Shown here one piece after another: positions 1,464-55,419 of a stretch of 64,000 nt of DNA. The stretch is from Octopus vulgaris (Eukaryota), in assembly GCA_951406725.2 (NCBI GenBank), contig OX597815.1, forward strand, positions 94,612,001-94,676,000, in the 5' to 3' direction. Each line of letters opens with the position of its first letter. Position 1 is the first letter of the stretch. The notes beneath the pieces were generated by a model, which was not told where the DNA came from, made no database searches, and was given only the letters and a program-made list of their open reading frames with translations. The position numbers and the translations under genes are program-made.

Positions 1464-4384
1464 CAGGACAAAGATCCCGTTCCTGAGAGACTTTGTTGCA
1501 TGCAATCAAGCCTTATGCATAGCACTTACAGAAACGCACCTGAAACCGGACATAGCAGATGCGGAGTTACACATACCACAGTATGCTGTACTACGGACCG
1601 ACAGGAAAGAAAGGAGTCATGGAGGTGTTGCTATGTACATCCGTGAGGACCTCACACCCCAGGTCCTCTTGTCATACTCAAACTCGGTGTGTGACACACT
1701 AATTGTACATATTAGGCAACTTGATGTAGTTGTGTGTGCTACATATCGCCCTCCAGATGCCCCAAGCCATGTGGGTAAGTTCGAAGACTGCCTTATAAAA
1801 ATAGAAGAAATTCTAACCACATTAGAATAACACATAGGTGTACTTCTTATGGGAGACTTCAATCTGCCCAATGTCAGATGGCCCGAGGGCCTTTCTCTCC
1901 CAGGAATGACAAGATGTGAACGAGGACAGGCGAGGTCCCTCCTGAACCTCATCAACACCCTGTACATGGAGCAGGTAATACTCCAACCAACCAGGGCAGG
2001 TAACACACTGGATCTCTGCTTCACAAATGACATGGATCTCATCCATAATGTGAAAGTGACACCGACACTACTCTCGGATCACAACATGATAGAGCTGACC
2101 ATGTACGGGCCAAAAGAGAGCACGGACATGCAGCCTACAAGAAACCCTCAAAATCTTTCCAGCTTGAACTACCATAAGGCAAACTGGAAACAAATTGAGA
2201 AAGAGATCCTCAAACAAAACTGGCCTGAATGTCTCTCCTCGCCAGACATCGACGTGAAACTTCAACAATTCATGTCTGTAATGCAAGCCATATGCTACAA
2301 ATGTGTCCCAGAGAGAAAGGCCACTGTACACAAGAACAAAATCCCCAGAGAGAGGAAAAATTTTAATGAGACGGCGTACGAAATTTTCAAATCGCCTAAA
2401 CAAACAGATTGAAAGCAGTGAAAAGTCCCGCCTAAAAATAAAACTGTTGGAAATCGAAAAATGTCTGCAACTCTCCCATGAAAAAGAAAGAGCAGACAAA
2501 GAAGCCTGGGCTATAGAAAACATAAAATCTAACCCCAGAGCTTTCTACAGGTATGCCAAAGAAACAGCTACAGTGCACTGTAGAATAGGGCCACTCCTTG
2601 AAAAGGATGGCACACTTACAGGAAAACCAATGAGGGTAAGTGAAATACTGAATGAGCAATTCAAGAGTGTTTTCACTCCACCCCTTGGACATCTCCAAAT
2701 CACCAATCCAACTGACTTTTTTACCACTGCAGATATAAAATCAGAGGTGGCGACGATAGATTACATCGATATAAAGGAAGACGATGTAACCAAGGCTATA
2801 GATGAAATGAAAAAAGACTCAGCTACTGGCCCCGATGGATTCCCGGCAATCCTCCTAAAAGCATGTAAGAGAGTCCTAGCAAGACCACTGCAGTTCCTCT
2901 TTCAGAGCTTCCTTGCAGCTGGCAAACTTCCAGGAAAACTGAAGGAAGGTAAAATATGCCCCATTCATAAAGGAGGTAGCAGAGCGGAAGCCAAGAACTA
3001 TAGACCTATCTCTCTGACCTCACACATCAGCAAGGTCATGGAACGAATAGTCAGAAGGAAGCTGATCACCTTCCTTGAAGAGAATGACTTGCTGCCCGAC
3101 ACCCAACATGGTTTCCGACCAGGGAGAAGCTGTTTAACTCAGCTCCTACAACACTATGACTGGGTGCTGAAACGGCTGCTCAACCACTCAAATGTGGAAG
3201 TGATATATCTCGACTTTGCAAAGGCCTTTGATAAAGTCGATCATGGAATGATATGTCACAAACTGCGTGATCTCAACATAGTTGGAAAACTGGGAGAATG
3301 GCTTCATGACTTTCTGAAGGATAGAAGTCAGGTGGTAGTAGCCAATGGGGCCACCTCCATTAACACACAAATAGTGAGTGGTGTTCCGCAGGGCACTGTA
3401 TTGGGACCACTACTGTTCATAATCGCCCTCTCAGACATGCCCTCAGCCACGCAGAGAGCCACGATCACAAGTTATGCAGATGATACAAAAGTCTCACAGG
3501 CAATACAGAACCCTGAGGACACTAAACACCTGCAATGTGAGCTGGACGAAATATACAAGTGGGCTGAAAAGAATAGCATGCAGTTCAATGCTGGAAAGTT
3601 TCAAGCTTTATACTATCAGCATGCAAAACTGAATGCAATACCCAATGAATACACTGGACCCGGAGGGATTGCAATCCCAGAGGCACAATCAGTGCGTGAC
3701 CTTGGTATTCACATGAGTGATAACGCGACCTTTCATGTACATGTTGCTAAACTGACAATGAAATGTAGACGGCTGGCTGGATGGATTCTTAGAACCTTTA
3801 GAACAAGAGAACAAGAAACCATGATGGTCCTCTGGAAGACACTTGTCCTAAGCCACTTTGACTATTGCTCTCAGCTATGGTCACCATCCAGTGTCAAGTT
3901 GATCACAGAACTTGAGGCGATCCAACGAAGCTACACAAAGAAGATAGCCTCTATGCAGAATGTAAGCTACTGGGAAAGACTCAAGAGATTAAAATTATAT
4001 TCCCTGGAGCGTAGGCGGGAAAGATATGCCATAATATACATCTGGAAGATCCTGGAGGGAAGTGTCCTGAACTTTGGCATCGAGAGTTACGCAAATGCCA
4101 GAACTGGGCGCCACTGCGTGGTGCCTAGGACTCCAAACCTGCCATCAAGATGTAGGACAAGATTCTGTGATAGCCTGGGCTTCCGAGGCCCACAGCTCTT
4201 CAATATCCTCCCGAAGAACCTGAGAGACCTGCATGGGGTGGATACAGATGTCTTTAAAATGAAGCTGGATCTCTTCCTGTCAGGTGTCCCAGATGAACCA
4301 ACTTCACGGCAGGAGGGGCAGATGAGGGCAGCTGCATCGAACTCTCTCATGCACCAAATAGCAGTTGCTAGAAAGCCTCCATGA
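1462..4384 (+). pseudogene. LINE ORF2 (APE-RT) with one nonsense codon (1828-1830) and one frameshift (~2355-2360)
   Basis: ORFs 1399..1830, 1849..2412 and 2303..4384 join into one protein. Copy 2 has Gln at the stop position (KLEQH vs TLE*H) and an unbroken RERKILIRRRT across the frameshift. Confidence 0.9.
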
Positions 4385-4476
4385 AGTGAAACCAAGTAGC
4401 AACACCAAATGGCGGTGCCCCAGCATGGCCACAGCTCATAAGCTGAAACTAGAATCAATCAATCAATCAATCAATC
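1462..4476 (+). mobile_element. 5'-truncated CR1/L2-group LINE (APE endonuclease + RT), copy 1, with (AATC)n tail
   Basis: APE motifs (LTETHL, GGVAMY, YRPP, GDFN, LDL, SDH) and RT motifs (NYRPISL, QHGFR, LDFAKAFD, GVPQG, YADD, YCSQLWSP). 3' UTR stem-loop at 4411-4449; AATC tail at 4453-4476. Confidence 0.95.
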
Positions 4477-4481
4477 ATATA

Positions 4482-27014: not shown

Positions 27015-27256
27015 GTGTATGTGTGTGTGAGTGTGTGTGTGCTTGTGTGTGTCTATGTTTGCCCCCCCCCCAACATCGCTTAACAACTGATGCTGGTGTG
27101 TTTACCTCCCCGTAACATAGCGGTTCGGCAGAAATAGAGTGATAGAATAAGTACTAGGCTTACAAAGAATAAGTCCTGGGGTCGATTTGCTCGACCAAAG
27201 GCGGTGCTCCAGCATGGCCGAAGTCAAATGACTGAAACAAGTAAAAGAGTAAAAGA

Positions 27257-27257
<1 letters not shown>
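26832..27257 (+). mobile_element. tRNA-derived SINE with internal microsatellite and CR1-LINE-like 3' end
   Basis: Head GCAGGAGTGGCTG..GGTTCAGTCCC, internal (TA)/(TG)n, 3' GGCGGTGCTCCAGCATGGCC..GACTGAAAC, tail (GTAAAAGA)2; other copies in window. Confidence 0.85.
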
Positions 27258-29638: not shown

Positions 29639-29735
<97 letters not shown>

Positions 29736-29915
29736 AATATGCGTATAGAGTACAGACATAAGGAAAGTATGTATGCTTGTATGATCACGTATGTGTACAT
29801 ATATATACATATATTACAAGTATATACATACATATATATATTTATGTATATACGCATATAATGTATTCTTTATGTTTGCTATGTATGTATGTGTGTATGT
29901 ATGTATGTATGTATG

Positions 29916-29959
<44 letters not shown>

Positions 29960-30108
29960 TACATACATACATATATATATATATATTTATATAAAATCTT
30001 TAAATCTTTAAAAATGTGTTTCAGGCCGAAAGCTGCGGCCATGCTGGGGCACCACCGTTGGATGAGCTACTCTAGTATGTGAAACCACCTCTGATACTTG
30101 GCACTTGG

Positions 30109-32380
30109 TCAACAAGGGAGTGTGACGCCGCTGCCCGCATCTGTGTTTCTGCCGAGAGGTATGTTCATTTTCCAGTAGTGTAGGGCTTGGAACTTCCCTG
30201 CATTAAACTTCATGTTGTTGTCCTCAGCCCACCAGTATATTATATCCAACTCCCGTTGCAGATGTACAATATTTCCAAGGTTTTGTAGTGTCTGAGAGAC
30301 TTTTGTGTCATCTGCATAGCTAACAAGGGTGGCCATCTTAGCAACTGAGGGCATGTCTGAAAGGGCCACTATGAACAGCAGTGGCCCCAATACAGTGCCC
30401 TGTGGAACACCACTTGTTATTTGTGTTTCCTTGGAGGTGGCTCCATTGGTCACCACTGCCTGCCTTCTATCTTTTAGGAAGTTGTGCAGCCACTCTCCAA
30501 GTTTTCCGCCAATGCCGAGATCACGCTGTTTGTGACAGATCATACCATGGTCGACTTTATCAAAGGCTTTTGCAAAGTCGAGATATATCACATCTACACT
30601 TGAGCCATTTAGTAGCTGTTTTCACACCCAGTCAGAGTGTTGCAGGAGTTGTGTTCGACAGCTTCTACCTGGTCGAAATCCATGCTGGTGGGTTAGTCAG
30701 CAAGTCATTTTCTTCAAGGAACTTGATTAGTTTCTTGCGGACTATTCGTTCCATGACTTTGGTGATGTTTGAGGTCAGAGAGATATGCCTATAATTTTTA
30801 GCATCTGCTCTACTTCCTCCCTTATGGATAGGGCATATTATCCCTTCGTTCAATTTGCCTGGGTGCTTACCACTTGTAAGAAAGCTCTGAAAAAGAAGCT
30901 GTAGCGTTTTTTCAAGGGCTCGTTTGCACGATTTGAGAAGGATCGCTGGAAATCCATCAGGTCCAGCAGCTGAGTTTGTGTCAATCTCGTCTATGGCCAG
31001 TGTGATATCATCATCTTCAATGATGATGTACTCAAATTTTGCCTATTTGGCTACAGGTAAAGTGGCAAAGAATTCTTCTTGTTTGTTTACTTGCCTGTGT
31101 CCTAGAGGTGTAGTGAATACACTTTGGAACTGTTCGTTCAGTATTTCACTTATCCTCATGAGTTTTCCTGTGGGGGAACCAACTTTTTGGAAGAGAGGTC
31201 CTATCCTCTGGCGCACTGTGGCCGTCTCTTTGGCAAACTTAAAGAAGGCTTTATAGTTTGACTTGATATTTTCTATAACCCAAGCTTCTTTATCTGCTCT
31301 CTCCTTTTCATGAGACTGATGCAGACCTTTCTAAATTTCCATTAGCATTCTCTCGAGGCGAGAATTCTCACCACTTTTGGTGTACTTGCTCAGGCGGTTC
31401 GCAATCCTTGTCCGTCGTCTAATAAGAATCTTCCTTTCCCTAGGGAAACTGTTTTTGTGTGTGCTGGTCCTGCACACTGGGACATATTTGTCACATATGG
31501 CTTGTATTATGGACATGAAACGTTTGTGTTTCATGTCAATGTCTGGTGTGAAAAGACATTTAGGCCAATCCTGTTTGAGTATCTCTTTCTCAATCAACTT
31601 CCAACTTGCTTTATGAAAGTTTAGTTTTGGAGAGATTGTGGATGCTTCGTATAGGCTGTACGTCTGCGGGGGCGTTTGGTCCATACATAGACAGCTCTAT
31701 TAGGTTGTAATCCGAGACCAATGTCGGCATCACTTTAACATTATGGATAATGTCCATATTGTTTGTGAAGCAGAGATCCAGTATATTATTTGCTCTGGCT
31801 GGTTGCAGCACAATTTTCTCCATGAAAGAGGTATTTGTAAGGTGAAGCAGGGGCTCTACCCGTCCTTGCTGATTGTATGTCATCCATGGGAGCATCTGCC
31901 GTCCAGGCCATTCCACATTGGGGAAGTTAAAGTCACCCATGAAGAATACACTGTTGTGTTGTTCCAGTTTGGCGAGAACTTCTATTTTTGTTAGGCAGTC
32001 TTCAAACATGCCTGTGCGATTTGGGGCATCTGGTGGACGATATGTAGTACATATGACGATATTCAGTTATCTTATTCGTACAATTTGAGTGTCACACACT
32101 GAGTTTGAATATGACAACAGGACCTGGGGCGTGAGGTCATCTCGGATGTACACTGCAACTCCACCATGTCTCCTCTCTTTTTTATCTGAGCGTATGACAA
32201 TATATTGCGGTATGTTTATTTCTGCATGCCCTATATCAGGTCCAATATGCGTTTCTATGAGTACCATGCATAGAGATTGATTGCATGCCGCAATGTCATT
32301 CAAGAATGATATTTTCCTTTTACAGTTGCTGCGCAACAGTCCTCCTACGTTCAGTAGAAATATTTTTGTGACGAGTGAGT
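30109..32380 (-). pseudogene. LINE ORF2 (APE-RT), multiply disrupted
   Basis: TKIFLLNVGGL, LIETH, GGVAVY, GDFN, NYRHISL, LDFAKAFD, GVPQG, YADD. Confidence 0.92.
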
Positions 32381-32466
32381 TGGTGTTTGTGGTGGCTATC
32401 CTGCACCTGTTGGTGGTGGCCTTATGTTTTGGTAGGTATAGTTCCAGCTTTGTCTTTGTAGCCAAG

Positions 32467-33324
32467 TCAGCTGCTGGACAATTTTTTGCACAATGCAAAA
32501 AAAGATTGCTGTTCAGCTGCTGCTCTTCTCCCATCTGGGTGAAGCTGGCATTTGTTGGGCCATGCAGTATCCTTTTTGGACCGCGCACTACATCTGCATA
32601 TTGTCTTTCGGGAGTAGTCAGTGCGCCATTTTCCTTCTTTGGTATTTTTCATTTTCTTTTTCTTTTTGGCCTCCTCCTGGGATTGTTGTATTGGGGCCAT
32701 GTGGTTTTGGCAGGTCTCCTGGTGTGCAAAAAGACAGTTTGCACCATCGTCGCCATGCCAGCGGTTTCCTTGCTAGTAAAATTTGCAGATGCTCCTGCTT
32801 TTGCCCTTGAAACTCCTGTAACTCTTGCTCTTCTGTTTTTTCTGAACAGTTTTTGTTGTGTTCTTTTCCTTTTTTTCTTTTACCTCTTGCTTTTCATTGC
32901 CTTCAGCAGCTTTTGTTCTCTTGGTTTTAAGGTGCTTTCCTTTTTCGGCCATCACACTTCTTTGGTCTTCAGGCGTGTTGGGGGCTGGACAAGAGCCATT
33001 GTTTCCCCTGGTTGCAGGTCTCTCTGTTGTGTCTTTGGTTTTGCTCTTCTGAGGGACTGTTGCGTCCTGGATGTTTTCTCCATCCTTTTTGTCATCCCTG
33101 GTGCAGTCACCTCCCAAGATGATGTCAAGTATGTCGATATGTTGTCTAATTAGAGCATATGAACGGAGAAATTCGCGTTTCTTCCGCTCTATCTTGGCGG
33201 TGGTTCTGGAGAAATCATTACTTTTAAGTGCCGCTGCAATGATGTTGTTTGGGGAGTCACCTTCAACAATCTTCCAAGCGCGGACAAACAATTGCAATTC
33301 TTTTGCGGACCAGTTCCGTGACAT
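32467..33324 (-). pseudogene. LINE ORF1 with trihelix Myb/SANT-like N-terminus and CCCH-type zinc finger (one in-frame stop at 32773-32775)
   Basis: MSRNWSAKELQLFVRAW..IAAALKSNDFSRTTAKIERKKREFLRSY; ICKFY*QGNRWHGDDGANCLFAH; ORFs 32773..33438 and 32467..32700 are in the same frame. Confidence 0.7.
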
Positions 33325-33344
33325 CTTAGCTTGGGATACAGTGA

Positions 33345-34000
33345 AATAGAGGAACAGAGAGAGGAGGAAAGATAAGGAGATTGACCTGAGAGGGAGAGGA
33401 GAGAAGAGAAATGCTGAAGGGGAGAAAGGGGGTGGCAAATCAGCTGGGGAGAGAGAGAGATAAGGGGAACAACCTGAGAAGAGAGAGGAGAGATAAAGAG
33501 TGGCAGATCAGCAGAGGGAGAGAGGGAGAGAGAGGGATAGAGGTGTGGTAAAGAGAAAGAAGTAAAGGGAGAGAGAGAGGAAAAGAGAGATAAGGGAATT
33601 GAATTGAGAGGGAGCGGAGATAAGAGAGGCAGAGAGAGAAGAGAAGCAGAGAGAGGGAGAGAGAAAAAAGAGAGAGGGCGATATAGAGGTACAAGAGAGA
33701 AAGAATGAAGTAGAGAGACAGAGAGAGGGTGAGATGCGAGGAAATTGACCTGAAAGAAAGCAGGGTGGGGGAGAGACGCAGAGAAAGAAAGCAAGTAGAA
33801 GTTCAGCAGAGGGTGGCAGAGAGAGAGAATGAGAGAGAGATGAAAGAGCAAAATAGAGGGTCTGAGGGACAGAGAAAGAGATAAGGAGGGTGTCAGAAGG
33901 GGAGAATGGTAAGACAGAGAGAGAAAGAGTAAGGCAGATCAGCGGGGTGAGAGAGAACAGAGGGGAAGAGAGAATAGAAGGGGAAAAGTGAGACAGAGAC
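33345..34000. repeat. Purine-rich (GA) low-complexity tract, probable LINE 5' leader on the minus strand
   Basis: Strong purine skew immediately upstream of the ORF1 ATG. Confidence 0.6.
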
Positions 34001-34818
34001 AAGAGTGGGCTGTATAGTTAGGGACGTGCAGATATTTTATATATATATATGTACACCAGCATAAACTATACAGAGAAAGGTAAACATATAGACAGGATTG
34101 AGAGAAGGAGAAAGACTGTATCAGGGACGAGCAACTTGTATATTTATATACAAACAAACACGCACATATGAAATAGTGTACGCACGCGTGAATATATCTA
34201 TGGATATATTGGTGTTACAGTTGAAACTGTCTATGAGTATATATGAATATACAATAAATTATTAATAAATAATTTTTTCTTACCTTCTGGTTGAGAGAAC
34301 ACTTACCTTCATTTTGTTTTAGAAGGAAGAAAGATATAAAAAGACAGACCTTCGATGTTCCTGTTTTCAATATCTTGAACAAGTTCCTGCTTGCGTTTTG
34401 TAAACAAAACAGAGCTCCGTTGTCTGTAGTTACAATATTTTATGCTTTGAACAACTTGCAACTTTAATATTTTGAACAAGTTGTAGATGTCAGGACGTAG
34501 CTTCTAAAAGAAATGCTAGCAGGGTAAACGAAGCGGCAACTTTTTGCTTTCTTTGTATATCCCTTTGCAACACGTGGCTTCAACAACACGTGTTCAATTC
34601 CTGAAATCTTCGTGTTGGATAGGTTATCCTTGTAGCTGCATATACTACCATCAAAAGCAAAATATCCTTCTCAAATATAGTGTACTTGTTACACTTTTCA
34701 ACTATATTTGCGGTACAGGTCACTTCACTTCTGATCACATAGATCTCTTGGAGGTTCTACAAAACTTTCAGATAAGTATAATTACACATCTTACTAGTTC
34801 GGCGCCATCTTGGATATC

Positions 34819-34881
<63 letters not shown>

Positions 34882-35869
34882 ACACACACACACATGTATA
34901 TGCTTTAGCTGTAGGTCTTTCTACGCTGTTCAGTGCATTGATGACATAGGTATAAAATATATTAGTGTGTAATATATATATATATATATTATATTATATA
35001 AGTTTTTCGGGATTCTAGAGAATCAGGTACATAAATAGAACACCAAGGTCAGGTCGTTTATAGTGCTATAGTGTACAAACAATATTTAAGGACAAATACG
35101 TACTTACTAATGTAAACACGGATTTGTACTCCGGTTGTGCGTACAATCACAAAGGGCAGTCTTAATACACACCGAGTCCTCCAGGTCACATATGGGAGAC
35201 TCACTGCACCTATTGCACTGCAGTCAATAGACTCTAGATCTAAACCAATTGCAGGTTCCGAGGTCGGTGAATGATAAACAGATAACAACACAATATGTAT
35301 GTATATATGTATGTATGTATTTATTATATATGTATATATGCATGCATGTAGCTACGTATGTAAATATGTATGAATATATCTATGTATGTATGTAGTTATC
35401 TGCTTCACCCTTCCTTTCTATTCTTATTGCATTTTATTGCATTTGCGTCTAACACTCTCTCAAATAACTCGGAATATCCTAATATTTACAACTCTTTACG
35501 AGATCAAACGAGATCATACACTTTCCCTTCTCTCTCTTCTCTTCTGTATTTCTCCCCCGCGCTTACTTCTTGTTTTCCCCTACCAACTCCACTCCCTGAC
35601 CCAGGACCCTTACTGAGTTCCTCTTTATAAACTTGATGCTAGCTTAGAGTCTTCACTCTCTGACCGTATTTGGGTCGGTAGCATCAACTGGCACGTTGTA
35701 CACTTGTTCAAAATATTTAATTTTTACTTGTATTCACCTGATACCAATAAAAAACACATCTGAAACAGCTGTGAACCAATCTATCTGTATTATTTTTTAC
35801 GCACACATACACACATACACTCATATCACCAACACCCACACAACCACATACAGACAGACAGACACACAC

Positions 35870-50505: not shown

Positions 50506-52929
50506 TATAAGGCACTCACGAAGGCCCATAATTGGAAATCTCCCGGTAAAGATAGGGTGCCGAATTTCTGGCTCGCATCGCTCCCGTGCGCACACGGCAA
50601 GCTAGTTCAGCTGCTCAATGGAATTTTGAGAGACCCAAAGAAAACACCTGAATGGTTAGCAAGTGGCATTACTTACCTACTCCCAAAGAATAACGAAACC
50701 AACCTTCCAAAAAACTATCGGCCTATATAACCTGTCTATCCACCACGTATAAAATCCTAACATCTATCCTGGCGGAGAAAACATATGCATTCATGGAGAA
50801 GAACGATATTTTCGCCATTGAACAAAAAGGGTGCCGCCGAGGCTCTTACGGATGCAAAGATCAACTGCTAATCAATCGTATGATCCTTGAGAACTGTCAC
50901 AACAAGCGCAGAAATCTCAGCACCGCATGGATTGACTATAAAAAGGCCTTCGACAGTATACCGCATCCATGGATCTTGAGATCGCTGGACATCTTTAAAA
51001 TTTCCCCTGTGATTTCAAACTTCCTGAAGCACAATATGTCGTTGTGGAATACGAATCCCCAATTAAACCACTCTAATGGAGTACTTGCCTCAGAAAATAT
51101 AAACATCAACTGTGGAATTTTTCAAGGTGACTCACTTTCACCTTTAATATTCTGCATAGCCCTAATACCCCTTACAAGTGAATTAAACAGAACAGGGTAT
51201 GGGTATAAAATTGCCAATAAAAAAATAAGCCATCTATTTTATATGGATGACTTAAAACTTTATGGTAAAGACAATAATGAACTTGAAGGCCTATTGCGCA
51301 CCGTGAAAGCATTCAGCGATGACATCGGGATGGAGTTTGGACTTGAGAAGTGTGCCAAGGCCACTTTCCAGAAAGGGAAAGTGAAGACCACAAATTCAGT
51401 CGTGTTAGATGTTGACACAGTCATAAGAGAGCTTGAGCAAGAACAGACATACAAATATTTAGGGATAAATGAAGGCTCTGGTATTCAGCATGCAAGCATG
51501 AAAGAGAAAATCAGGAAGGAATGTTATAGGAGAGTTCGTGCAGTCCTGAAATCTGAACTAAATGCACGTAACAAGGTGTTAGCTATAAATTCCTTAGCAG
51601 TTCCAGTTGTTACTTATAGCTACAATGTGTTGAACTGGAATATGAGTGAAGTAATGAATATAGATAGAAAAATACGCAAGCTGCTGAGTTGTAATAGGAT
51701 GCACCACCCAAAGGCAGACGTAGATCGCCTTTACCTTCCCAGAGCCCAAGGAGGTCGAGGCCTGATCCAATTTGAACTAGCTTACAAAACAACCACAATT
51801 GGACTGGCCAAATATCTCGAAATATCGAATGACTGGATGCTAAAGCTCGTGGAAAATCACGAGAGACGAAAGAAGCTTCATTCTATCATCAAGGAAAGCA
51901 AAAAATTTGCTATTGATCTCGTGCAGGATACCCAAACTGAACAACCCGAGGGAAGTACGGCAACTATTGTTGCAAAGAAGGTGAAAATGATGGCAATGAA
52001 AAAAACGGCAAATATGTGACCCGCAGCAAACAAGCTGATGTTGACCAGAAGCAAACCCATCAGTGGCTGCGGAGCTCAGGGCTAAAAGCAGAGAGCGAAG
52101 GTTTCATCCTGGCTGCTCAAGACCAAAGCCTATTAACCCGGAACTACCAGGCCAATGTGATGAAAAATGGAGCAGACCCAAAATGCCGATTCTGCAACGA
52201 CATGATTGAAACAGTGGACCACCTAATCTCTGGATGTAAAGTCTTAGCACCAGTGGAGTATAAATTAAGACATGACAGAGTTGGCCAATATCTCCACTGG
52301 CTAATAAGTCGGCATTACAATATCAAAACTGCCGACAAGTGGTATAATCACCACCCTGAGGCTGTAACTGAAGGAGAAAATGTAACCATTCTGTGGGACT
52401 TTCCAGTACATACAGACCGAACCATCAAGGCCAATAAACCAGATATTGTTGTGAAAGACCAAAACAATAAAGTTTGCTTATTGATCGACATGAGCATCCC
52501 CTGTGATCATAATATCTCAGCGAAAGAGTTTGACAAGCTCAGAAAATATAAAGACCTACTCATTGAAATTGAGAAAATGTGGCATCTCAAGGCGGTTACA
52601 ATACCAGTGATCGTAGGAGCACTAGGAATGATCAAGAAGGGAACCGAAAATTATATGAGAATGATCCCTGGCTTACCATCCCTGCAAGAAGTGCAAAAGA
52701 TTGTCTTAACTGGTACATCACACGTATTGAGAAGAGCATTGTCGATGTGAGAACTGTTGCTTCTCATGTATTTTAATTTAACTTTAAAAAAACAAAAAAA
52801 AAAAAAAATGAACGAACTACTGAGTTTGGTTTAATGGCCTACCAATATACACTATGAGTTTCTTTGCCCTAGGAGTCGGGAAGACACTCGGCAAGAAATG
52901 GAAGAAAATTTGAAAGAAGAAAAAAAAAA

Positions 52930-52930
<1 letters not shown>
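50505..52930 (+). mobile_element. 5'-truncated R4/Dong-clade non-LTR retrotransposon (RT + CCHC + restriction-like endonuclease)
   Basis: KSPGKD, NYRPI, EQKG, DYKKAFD, GIFQGD, YMDD, CRFC..ETVDHLISGC, RHD, KPDIV, DMSIP, KLRKY; two frameshifts; (AAT)n on both sides. Confidence 0.95.
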
Positions 52931-53012: not shown

Positions 53013-55125
53013 TGCCTTTACACATCTTCTAACGCTGGAGATGTACTACGGTGTCAGCTGTTCACTACCGGTGAACTAAGGTTACACCTCTTATTTATCG
53101 AGCACCTTCCGGAGTATTCGAGCGGTTCCAAGCATTGCTGTTTTTTTGCAAGTGCCCCAACCTTATTGCAGTCTCTATTTGTTACCCGTACTTCTCGAGA
53201 TTTTTGCTCGCTGTTCCAAGGGTTCCGACGATTATTGGTACTACTACCATCTTTTTCATCGACCACATCTGCTTAACATCCCAAGCTAACCTGTCATATC
53301 TCTCAACTTTTCTTTCTTCCTTATCGCACACCATGTTGTCAGCTGGGCATGTTATATCTATGATTCAGCATAGTTTGGTCTCTTTCTCAATTAAGACTAT
53401 GTCTGGCTTCCTATTCTCTATCTTATGGTTGCACTGAATCATAAAATACCACAGGATCTTTGCATTATCATTTTCGATGATGGATTCGGGTTTGTGGTCG
53501 TGCCAATTTTTTGCTCTGTCAAGTCCATACCTATAGCAAAGGGTCCAATGCACAAGTCTTGCTATGTTGTCGTGGCGTCTCTTATATTCCTTCAGAGCTA
53601 GCGGCGTACATTGGCTGGTAATATGCCATACGGTTTCAGCATTTCGTCCACAGATTCTGCACTTATCCTTTCTGATGTGTTGTCTATTCTGTATTTTATG
53701 TAGTTTGTTCGTGTTTGCTCTTGGGCAGCGCGGATTAGAGCCTCCATTTCCAGTTTTAAATCACATTTAGTCATCCACAGCCATCTTTTTTCTCTGTCTT
53801 ATATTCAACATCCCGATGAAATTGTCCATGCATTCTTTTCTTTACCCACCTTTTTCAGTTTCATACATTTTTAATTGCTTGTACAGTGCTTTTACTTTGC
53901 AATCTTTCATCCTATACAGGCCTTTCCTTCTTACTTCTAATAATAGCGGTTCGATGGCATTTTTGTTACATGTTATGTTGTTTCTTTTTTGCTCTAATGC
54001 TATGTTAACATCCAATAAGTCCTCTTCCCCCTCTTTTTCTTGGAACATACAGTCTGTCTGTTTCCCTTTTTGGGTGGAGTGACCCATATCTAGTTAGCAA
54101 CTTCCTTGTCTTTCTGTCTAAGCTGTTTATTTCGTCTAATGCCCATGCGATTAACCCTGTTCCATATCTAAGAAGTGAAATCACCCAGGTGTTGATAGCT
54201 TCAATCTTATTCCGTCCATTTAATTTCGACTTCGGCTTCATCTTTACCATGAAGTTTGAGGCCATCCATGAATAAAAAATGGTTGACTTTTTGTTAGCGG
54301 CTTTTGCTTTCCTCAGAATCAGTGTTAGTAGTATCAAGTACAGTACAAAGATCAGTGGGGACAGGCAGTCCCCTTGGACGATGCCCCTCCTAATTTCTCC
54401 TATCCCTAAACTTCTTCCGTATGCTGTCAGGTCCGTCCTCCAATTTGCAATACATTTTTCAAGCAATCGCTCAACATTCGATGCAATACCAAGTGAGTTC
54501 TTACACTCCATAATCCAAGAATGTGGGATCATATCGAACGCTTTACGATAGTCGATCCATGACATGGCTACGTTACTTTTCTTCCTCTTGCAGTCTCCAA
54601 GTACAGTTTTATCTATTAGGAGTTGATCCTTGGTACCTCTGCACTTACGCTTGCAAACCTTCTGCTCATGTGGCAGGAGTCCATTTTTTTCCAGATGTTC
54701 GTACATTGATTTTGCGATTATTCCAGTCAATAACACCCACATAAGTGGCAAACAGGATATCGGCATGTAATTGTCTACCGTATTACCTTTTTCGATGCTT
54801 TTCAAGCACAGCACTGTCCTACCCAACGTCAACCACGCTGGTGTTACTTGGTCGGTATTTAACAAGGCGGCGAGCTGGCAGAAACGTTAGCACGCCGGAC
54901 GAAATGCGTAGCCGTATTTCGTCTGCCGTTACGTTCTGAGTTCAAATTCCGCCGAGGTCGACGTTGCCTTTCATCCTTTCGGGGTCGATAAATTAAGTAC
55001 CAGTTACGCACTTGGGTCGATGTAATCGAATTAATCTCATTGTCTGTCCTCTCTGTGTTTAGCCCCTTGTGGGTAGTAAAGAAATAGGTATTTAGCAAGG
55101 TGTTGAGTTGCGCAGTTTCATTACC
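53013..55125 (-). mobile_element. Second R4/Dong-clade element, decayed, tail-to-tail with the first
   Basis: [40 protein letters not shown]; 3' end runs into (AAT)n on the minus strand. Confidence 0.9.
54866..55086 (+). mobile_element. tRNA-derived SINE inserted in the Dong element, 14-bp TSD
   Basis: TGGCAGAAACG A box, GAGTTCAAATTCC B box, GCCTTTCATCCTTTCGGGGTCGATAAA core; GGTATTTARCAAGG at 54854-54867 and 55087-55100. Confidence 0.9.
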
Positions 55126-55218
55126 ACCGTTATTCACAATATTTTGTTTTTTTATTGTCACAATATTTTGTTTTTTTATTACACTCAGTGTATTACTAGA
55201 TGTATCATTAATCAGGAC

Positions 55219-55272
<54 letters not shown>

Positions 55273-55419
55273 ATTTATCCTAAATTATATCGATACAACT
55301 CGGTACTATCCAATAAAATTGCTGATGTAAGTCGGAATTACTAGGCAGTAGCCTGCACAATAGAATAGGAGCTATTGTGCGAGTACTCAAAAACGTTTCC
55401 GGTAAACAAACTTAAAGGC

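Follow-up and report, generated by a model that had tools for sequence, protein, structure and literature searches.

A putative trihelix-type Myb/SANT domain in ORF1 of CR1-type LINEs of Octopus vulgaris that insert preferentially at (TA)n microsatellites

The analyses reported here indicate that, in a group of CR1-type LINEs of Octopus vulgaris, a trihelix-type Myb/SANT domain with a predicted capacity for DNA binding opens ORF1 and is followed by CCCH zinc finger sequence, and that the elements which carry it insert preferentially at (TA)n microsatellites, a preference that is particular to this lineage among the elements tested. Both the ORF1 architecture and the TA preference we consider very probable. 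The starting copy lies in a window of 64,000 nucleotides (contig OX597815.1, positions 94,612,001 to 94,676,000 of the forward strand), and the other copies of its family were drawn from the same 2.8 Gb genome. The features of the window element, a full-length but dead copy, are as follows (evidence in brackets).

29643..29993, no strand: 3' flank and target, consisting of a (TA)n/(ATAT)n microsatellite (TRF, family pattern)
29993..30075, minus strand: 3' UTR, a GGTGGTGCCCCAGCATGGCC core and a short (GGATTTAA)-type repeat tail
29993..34821, minus strand: full-length decayed CR1-type LINE of an older subfamily of family A (81% identity to L078, 5' homology, 3' tail)
30078..32513, minus strand: ORF2, AP endonuclease and reverse transcriptase (Pfam, tblastn)
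32351..33324, minus strand: ORF1, 298 aa in intact copies (tblastn of intact ORF1, frames)
32440..32600, approximate, minus strand: conserved C-terminal helical region of ORF1 (identity between families A and B, predicted helix)
32719..32790, minus strand: single CCCH zinc finger, C-x7-C-x8-C-x3-H (Pfam, copy comparison, tblastn)
33109..33324, minus strand: putative Myb/SANT trihelix-type domain, residues 1-72 (Pfam PF13837, AlphaFold2, fold searches, dN/dS)
33325..34821, minus strand: 5' UTR of about 1.5 kb, start near AAGATGGCG, with a CT-rich repeated part (shared upstream homology)
34822..34894, no strand: 5' flank, an (AC)n microsatellite (TRF)

The window copy is 81% identical to the young copy L078 across 3.6 kb, and on its 5' side the homology to other copies extends to 34811-34832. 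The start, at about 34808-34816 on the minus strand, carries AAGATGGCG, which we take to be a YY1-like motif; the same sequence begins the young full-length copies L075, L078, L079, L081 and L083, and families B-D did not show it at their starts. An initial annotation of this DNA had placed ORF1 at 32467..33324. Its start and its translation stand, the minus-strand frame from 33324 matching the latter as far as a TAG stop at 32775-32773, but its end is the stop of a shifted frame, and the ORF1 of the family runs to about 32351. Besides this TAG, the window ORF1 has a frameshift just past the CCCH finger, and ORF2 has lost about 217 codons near its 3' end to a deletion and is further interrupted by frameshifts and by several stops. 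Within the 5' UTR (33340-34310, minus strand) GTAAG donor-like motifs precede a long pyrimidine tract and several CAG/G acceptor-like sites; a matching spliced joint was absent from four contig sets that are only guessed to be RNA, and ORF1 coverage in such sets does not count as proof of transcription. Elsewhere in the window, at 1465-4477 (plus strand), a family B element that is truncated at its 5' side and has no ORF1 begins after (AT)n at 1414-1462 and ends in (AATC)n, its RT grouping with that of L089, and two decayed LINEs of another type, which from their motifs we presume to be R4/Dong-like, face each other at 50512-52930 (plus strand) and about 53050-55284 (minus strand), bordered by (TAA)n/(ATT)n runs.

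That the segment belongs to a repeat family, as had been proposed, is borne out by 42 DNA matches to the ORF1 region in the genome and by a protein search with the N-terminal 74 aa, in which all 150 candidates scored (of 1448) matched, many within open frames of about 300 aa. Young family A copies with intact frames encode an ORF1 of 298 aa and an ORF2 of 1039 aa: ORF1 was open alone in 11 of 12 young copies fetched and fused to ORF2 in one, at least two (L076 and L078) also carry the 1039-aa ORF2, and seven young copies are 99.1-99.3% identical to L078. Family A has spread recently as intact copies. Four single copies (L080, L092, L211 and L212) have ORF1 and ORF2 fused in one frame of 811-1468 aa, probably through private indels or deletions. 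The suggestion that a CGC codon in the window finger was originally TGC proved correct, the position being a Cys codon in 28 of the 29 other copies (one gap); each of the other two finger Cys residues is likewise kept in 28/29 and the His in 29/29, and the position of the window TAG is a Leu codon in 26/29. Both the stop and the Cys-to-Arg change are private to the window copy.

The family A ORF1 consists of Myb domain, linker, one CCCH finger, helix and P/Q tail. In the sister family B, ORF1 is 47% identical overall, with 57% identity in the Myb domain and 76% in the C-terminal helical region, against 17% in the linkers. A full-length ORF1 model, used for local helices only (pTM 0.33, low-confidence linkers), contains a helix at 237-272 and no beta-sheet domain, and the C-terminal helical region may possibly serve in oligomerization. 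RRM, CCHC, Tnp22, PHD and esterase domains were not found by Pfam at E<=10 in six intact ORF1s. Two intact ORF2s gave Exo_endo_phos, Exo_endo_phos_2 and RVT_1 as their only matches at E<=10, that is, an APE and an RT and no RNase H. At several places on a single contig (G000:C28, e.g. L387 and L320-L348), family B copies are also arranged head to tail, repeating about every 5.66 kb; in the two array units read, ORF1 is missing its first 50-60 codons, which make up most of the Myb domain.

From this domain content, and from RT motifs that we take to match CR1 (L2 being disfavoured by these motifs only), the element would be of CR1 type; the RT trees contain no named reference. LINEs of the CR1 clade end at their 3' side in short tandem repeats and not in poly(A). 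In an O. vulgaris repeat annotation, CR1 but no L2 appears among the recently active LINEs of Table 1 (PMC13282606).

The proposal of a trihelix Myb/SANT domain held up on both profile and fold evidence. Myb_DNA-bind_4 (PF13837, gathering cut-off 27 bits) matches seven of eight family A copies, the best being the intact L076 (E 2.6e-4, 21.7 bits, under the cut-off); the window domain has an E of 0.015, and it scored only when trimmed, Pfam on the long window fragment finding neither Myb nor CCCH. Family B (18.9 bits) and family C (25.1 on the whole ORF1) also fall under the cut-off, and family D exceeds it (29.9 bits on the whole ORF1, up to 42.9), as does the homologue P0026 (29.3 bits). AlphaFold2, run on L076 with a 26-row alignment, predicts helices at 7-19, 25-35 and 42-70 (pLDDT 88), a three-helix fold with a long third helix and, in family A, a short second one. 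Foldseek placed the RAD MYB domain first (probability 0.99, TM 0.65/0.75; no row at E<=0.001), with TEAD4, GT-1 and a SANT domain as the next high-probability rows. A wide fold search (VIA) was headed by RAD MYB (Z 7.3, rmsd 2.6, 58 aligned), followed by the DNAJC2 SANT (Z 7.1) and GT-1 (Z 7.0, rmsd 6.6, 72 aligned), the peak Z of 7.3 being middling and common for small folds.

One might suppose that the likeness is due to chance and that the N-terminus is a three-helix segment merely resembling the family, given these middling Z-scores, the sub-threshold Pfam scores of families A and B, and PDB sequence searches with both profiles that returned no Myb and only weak chance matches such as ribosomal S8 (E 0.014). 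We find this scarcely credible, since homologous domains in family D and P0026 lie over the cut-off, the A/B Myb profile gives families C and D 34-56 bits (host Myb proteins 6-13), a profile comparison of a host Myb/SANT protein with the LINE domain yields a probability of 87.6 (E 3.5e-6), and both fold searches rank MYB first.

The domain has 26 homologues among 1.84 billion protein representatives, and L33, R40, K48 and Y56 are nearly invariant across the 26 rows. W5, W17 and Y56 are kept; the helix-3 Trp of three host Myb proteins is a Lys in family A, and the host proteins L181 and L182 likewise lack this Trp. The domain is basic (pI 9.1-10.1), and its dN/dS of 0.07-0.08 indicates purifying selection. 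Three of the homologues (P0012, P0023 and P0027) share the whole ORF1 layout at 29-36% identity; since the best match of P0023 in this genome reaches only 28-33%, the layout of Myb plus CCCH probably exists in other species too.

The CCCH finger itself is recognized by Pfam zf-CCCH on isolated fingers (22.1 and 20.8 bits, cut-off 20.5), with a spacing of x7/x8/x3 that is wider than the canonical x8/x5/x3. It had been regarded as part of a captured module, a view that has to be given up because the marine relatives carry tandem CCCH fingers behind a PHD-like finger. We fetched 80 marine loci with related RTs; those close relatives for which ORF1 sequence is available have tandem CCCH fingers, preceded by a PHD-like finger in L095, L097 and L098, and in L100 the sequence stops short of that region. 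These four marine elements belong to the same RT clade as the octopus elements (100/100) and resemble the octopus ORF1 in C-terminal helix and P/Q tail, differing in that their N-terminus is PHD-like where the octopus families have Myb. Between the marine CCCH array and the family D array the identity is 42-49%. A search with the CCCH array returned 65 proteins, some labelled Mnemiopsis leidyi and two apparently the ORF1s of L097 and L098; a PHD-like pattern is present in 37 of the 46 that reach at least 380 aa, and Pfam PHD in 2 of 47 scanned. The LINE Myb profile matched none of the 65 (best E 1.2) and none of the 80 marine loci plus 120 ORF2 relatives (best E 0.46). On these comparisons the CCCH fingers are native to the lineage and the Myb domain alone is new. 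One CCCH-array ORF1-like protein, P0171, adds to the lineage a third kind of N-terminal module, a PWWP domain standing where the others have PHD or Myb.

The preference for (TA)n, also put forward at the outset, is confirmed in all four Myb families. Insertion ends were scored for a TA-rich alternating run within 40 nt. In 30 young family A 3' ends, for which the query stopped within the tail and all of which have the (GGATTTAA)n tail, such a run follows in 27, as compared with a background in the window of 121/1278 positions (9.5%); a stricter test gave 25/30, with two tails mis-cut. Among older family A copies the script scored 1/3 and left four more unparsed. Family B has (TA)n on its 3' side in 28 of 33 dispersed copies (39 dispersed places fetched and six without tail excluded, 29 of 30 loci retrieved earlier having been dropped as non-independent because they lie in tandem arrays on one contig), family C in 8/8 and family D in 4/5. 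The (TA)n run as a tail made by the element was considered and ruled out, for (TA)n is found at 5' junctions also: in 12 of 14 family A copies with visible 5' truncation, and directly before the start of five young full-length copies.

By contrast, an RTE-type LINE of the same genome scored 1/30 (Fisher p 2e-12 against family A); about 6 of these 30 copies have no genuine 3' end and in one the alignment took in the TA run, and with the control taken as 4/30 the p value is still 2e-9. A SINE whose 3' core recurs in families A and B was at (TA)n in 4/29, its tail unit differing from theirs. The two controls exceed the young families in age, and (TA)n is quick to decay. The SINE-like repeat is abundant (5665 candidates) and is represented in the window at about 27060-27257 (plus strand), with a GGCGGTGCTCCAGCATGGCC 3' core and a (AAAAGAGT)n tail; its copies are 92-95% identical to the window SINE copy, and its partner LINE was not found. 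In the PHD-type elements L097 and L098, the two with readable 3' flanks, no (TA)n run follows the tail, an outcome that depends on how much (TA)n their genomes contain. The endonucleases of families A and C are 37% identical, and the two families have the same (TA)n target.

We tentatively favour a mechanism in which the Myb domain would tether the retrotransposition particle to TA-repeat DNA and so bias insertion. Following transcription, which would start at the 5' end of the element, ORF1 would coat the element RNA by way of its CCCH finger and may oligomerize through its C-terminal helix, as general ORF1 biology suggests (excerpts of PMC2881922); the Myb domain would then hold the particle on TA-repeat DNA, the ORF2 endonuclease would place its nick at a T-A step, and the tail, ending in AT, would base-pair with the target DNA. 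Tethering is favoured because the SINE with the common 3' core shows no enrichment at (TA)n and because families whose endonucleases are 37% identical have a common target; R2Bm and TRAS supply a precedent for a Myb domain in target recognition. Against it count the position of the Myb domain in R2 and TRAS, which is on the enzyme chain and not in ORF1, the ability that tails ending in AT or TAT could have to pair with (TA)n unaided, and, for family A, the Pfam scores under the cut-off, the short helix 2 and the change of the helix-3 Trp to Lys.

It is also quite conceivable that the (TA)n target is determined solely by the endonuclease and by pairing of the 3' tail and that the Myb domain serves as a protein or chromatin dock (for nuclear import, ORF2 binding or nucleosome contact) in the slot of the PHD finger. 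The endonuclease part is favoured by the finding that swapping the endonuclease between SART1 and TRAS1 swaps the target, the endonuclease being the primary determinant of target in APE-type LINEs (accessible part of PMC7265360), and the junctions of the marine relatives are likewise at T-A steps. Docking would agree with the loss of the helix-3 Trp, with the SANT domains among the top fold matches, and with Harbinger Myb-like proteins, which bind and import the transposase besides binding DNA (accessible part of PMC9392472). The SINE result speaks against endonuclease and tail sufficing, as does the fact that the divergent endonucleases share their target together with the Myb domain, and the basic character of the domain speaks against a mere dock. 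Binding of the Myb domain to the element's own 5' UTR (the CT-rich repeats or a promoter), regulating transcription, we consider improbable: the family A 5' UTR is long and repeated, and a Myb-like protein of Harbinger is known to bind the ends of its own transposon (same excerpts of PMC9392472), but the upstream regions are dissimilar among the four families that share the Myb subtype.

With respect to origin, a genome search with PF13837 put 131 sequences over the cut-off among 150 scored (of 448 candidates); the top 30 comprise five host-gene-like sequences and 25 of LINE family D, in which ORF1 combines Myb with four CCCH fingers. A 467-codon frame recurs in many lower rows, and the eight such rows examined are family C, with Myb plus two fingers and, in four of the eight, an intact 1043-aa ORF2. 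The LINE Myb domains form one group (bootstrap 91), which the host sequences L181 and L182 adjoin (86), in a tree that rests on 70 residues and has modest support. In a 36-row RT tree, families C and D are sister to the PHD-CCCH elements (95/91), and A and B fall with an Argonauta sequence in a separate branch (99/96), a joint octopod RT clade being rejected (AU p 0.0004, LG+G4 without mixture). Four families of this genome, placed on two distinct RT branches, have one Myb subtype in common.

The simplest reading of these trees would be a single Myb capture followed by exchange of ORF1 between the branches, and an older Myb domain lost elsewhere could also account for them. With a single capture, the Myb domain would have taken the place of an ancestral PHD-type N-terminus, direct support for which comes from branch C/D only; in the A/B branch, the nearest marine relatives were seen without a complete ORF1. 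As to a donor, 12 Harbinger-type transposase matches were found, none near the five host Myb loci L179-L183.

Shuffling and exchange of ORF1 domains between CR1/L2 lineages are described in the accessible text of Metcalfe and Casane (2014; PMC4120745), whose ORF1 types I-V share with the octopus elements the two-ORF plan, APE plus RT and a modular ORF1. The table of that paper gives PHD, RRM, CCHC, Tnp22, esterase and zf/lz where the octopus elements have Myb plus CCCH, and the terms Myb, SANT and CCCH have no occurrence in its main text. A search by titles and the starts of abstracts, with Repbase, Dfam and most subscription papers outside it, returned no earlier description of Myb/SANT or CCCH in a CR1/L2 ORF1; the supplements and repeat library of PMC13282606, likewise outside the comparison, may hold these families. 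R2 and TRAS are likewise non-LTR retrotransposons that are sequence-specific and have a Myb domain, which, according to excerpts of PMC10499050 and PMC5537684, helps to recognize the target (R2Bm) or is proposed to do so (TRAS). There it is part of the RT-bearing protein, whereas the octopus Myb is in ORF1, is of the trihelix subtype and belongs to a CR1-type element with a dinucleotide target. Target-specific non-LTR families are assigned to the early-branched, Tx1 and R1 groups in the accessible part of PMC4640811. The trihelix Myb/SANT class is shared also with Harbinger Myb-like proteins and the MSANTD/NAIF1 family, which, in the accessible part of PMC9392472, are DNA-transposon or host genes, the octopus domain residing in a LINE.

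Finally, the field has yet to settle how LINEs choose their targets and which functions the various domains of ORF1 have, and here CR1-type families on two RT branches, which strongly prefer (TA)n, carry a new ORF1 domain with predicted DNA-binding function. Domain capture into a LINE ORF1 is an already known, recurring theme. Even without a targeting role for Myb, the layouts Myb plus CCCH and PHD plus CCCH are absent from the published classification as given in the accessible text of PMC4120745. Near-identical intact copies are available, so that a targeting role of ORF1 is directly testable. The fuller history, in which octopus CR1-type LINEs gained microsatellite targeting when a trihelix Myb replaced PHD in ORF1 and the module then moved between branches, we regard as rather doubtful. 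If it is true, these would be LINEs in which reading of the target DNA sequence falls to the packaging protein instead of the enzyme, and the Myb domain would constitute a portable means of directing insertions to (TA)n sites.
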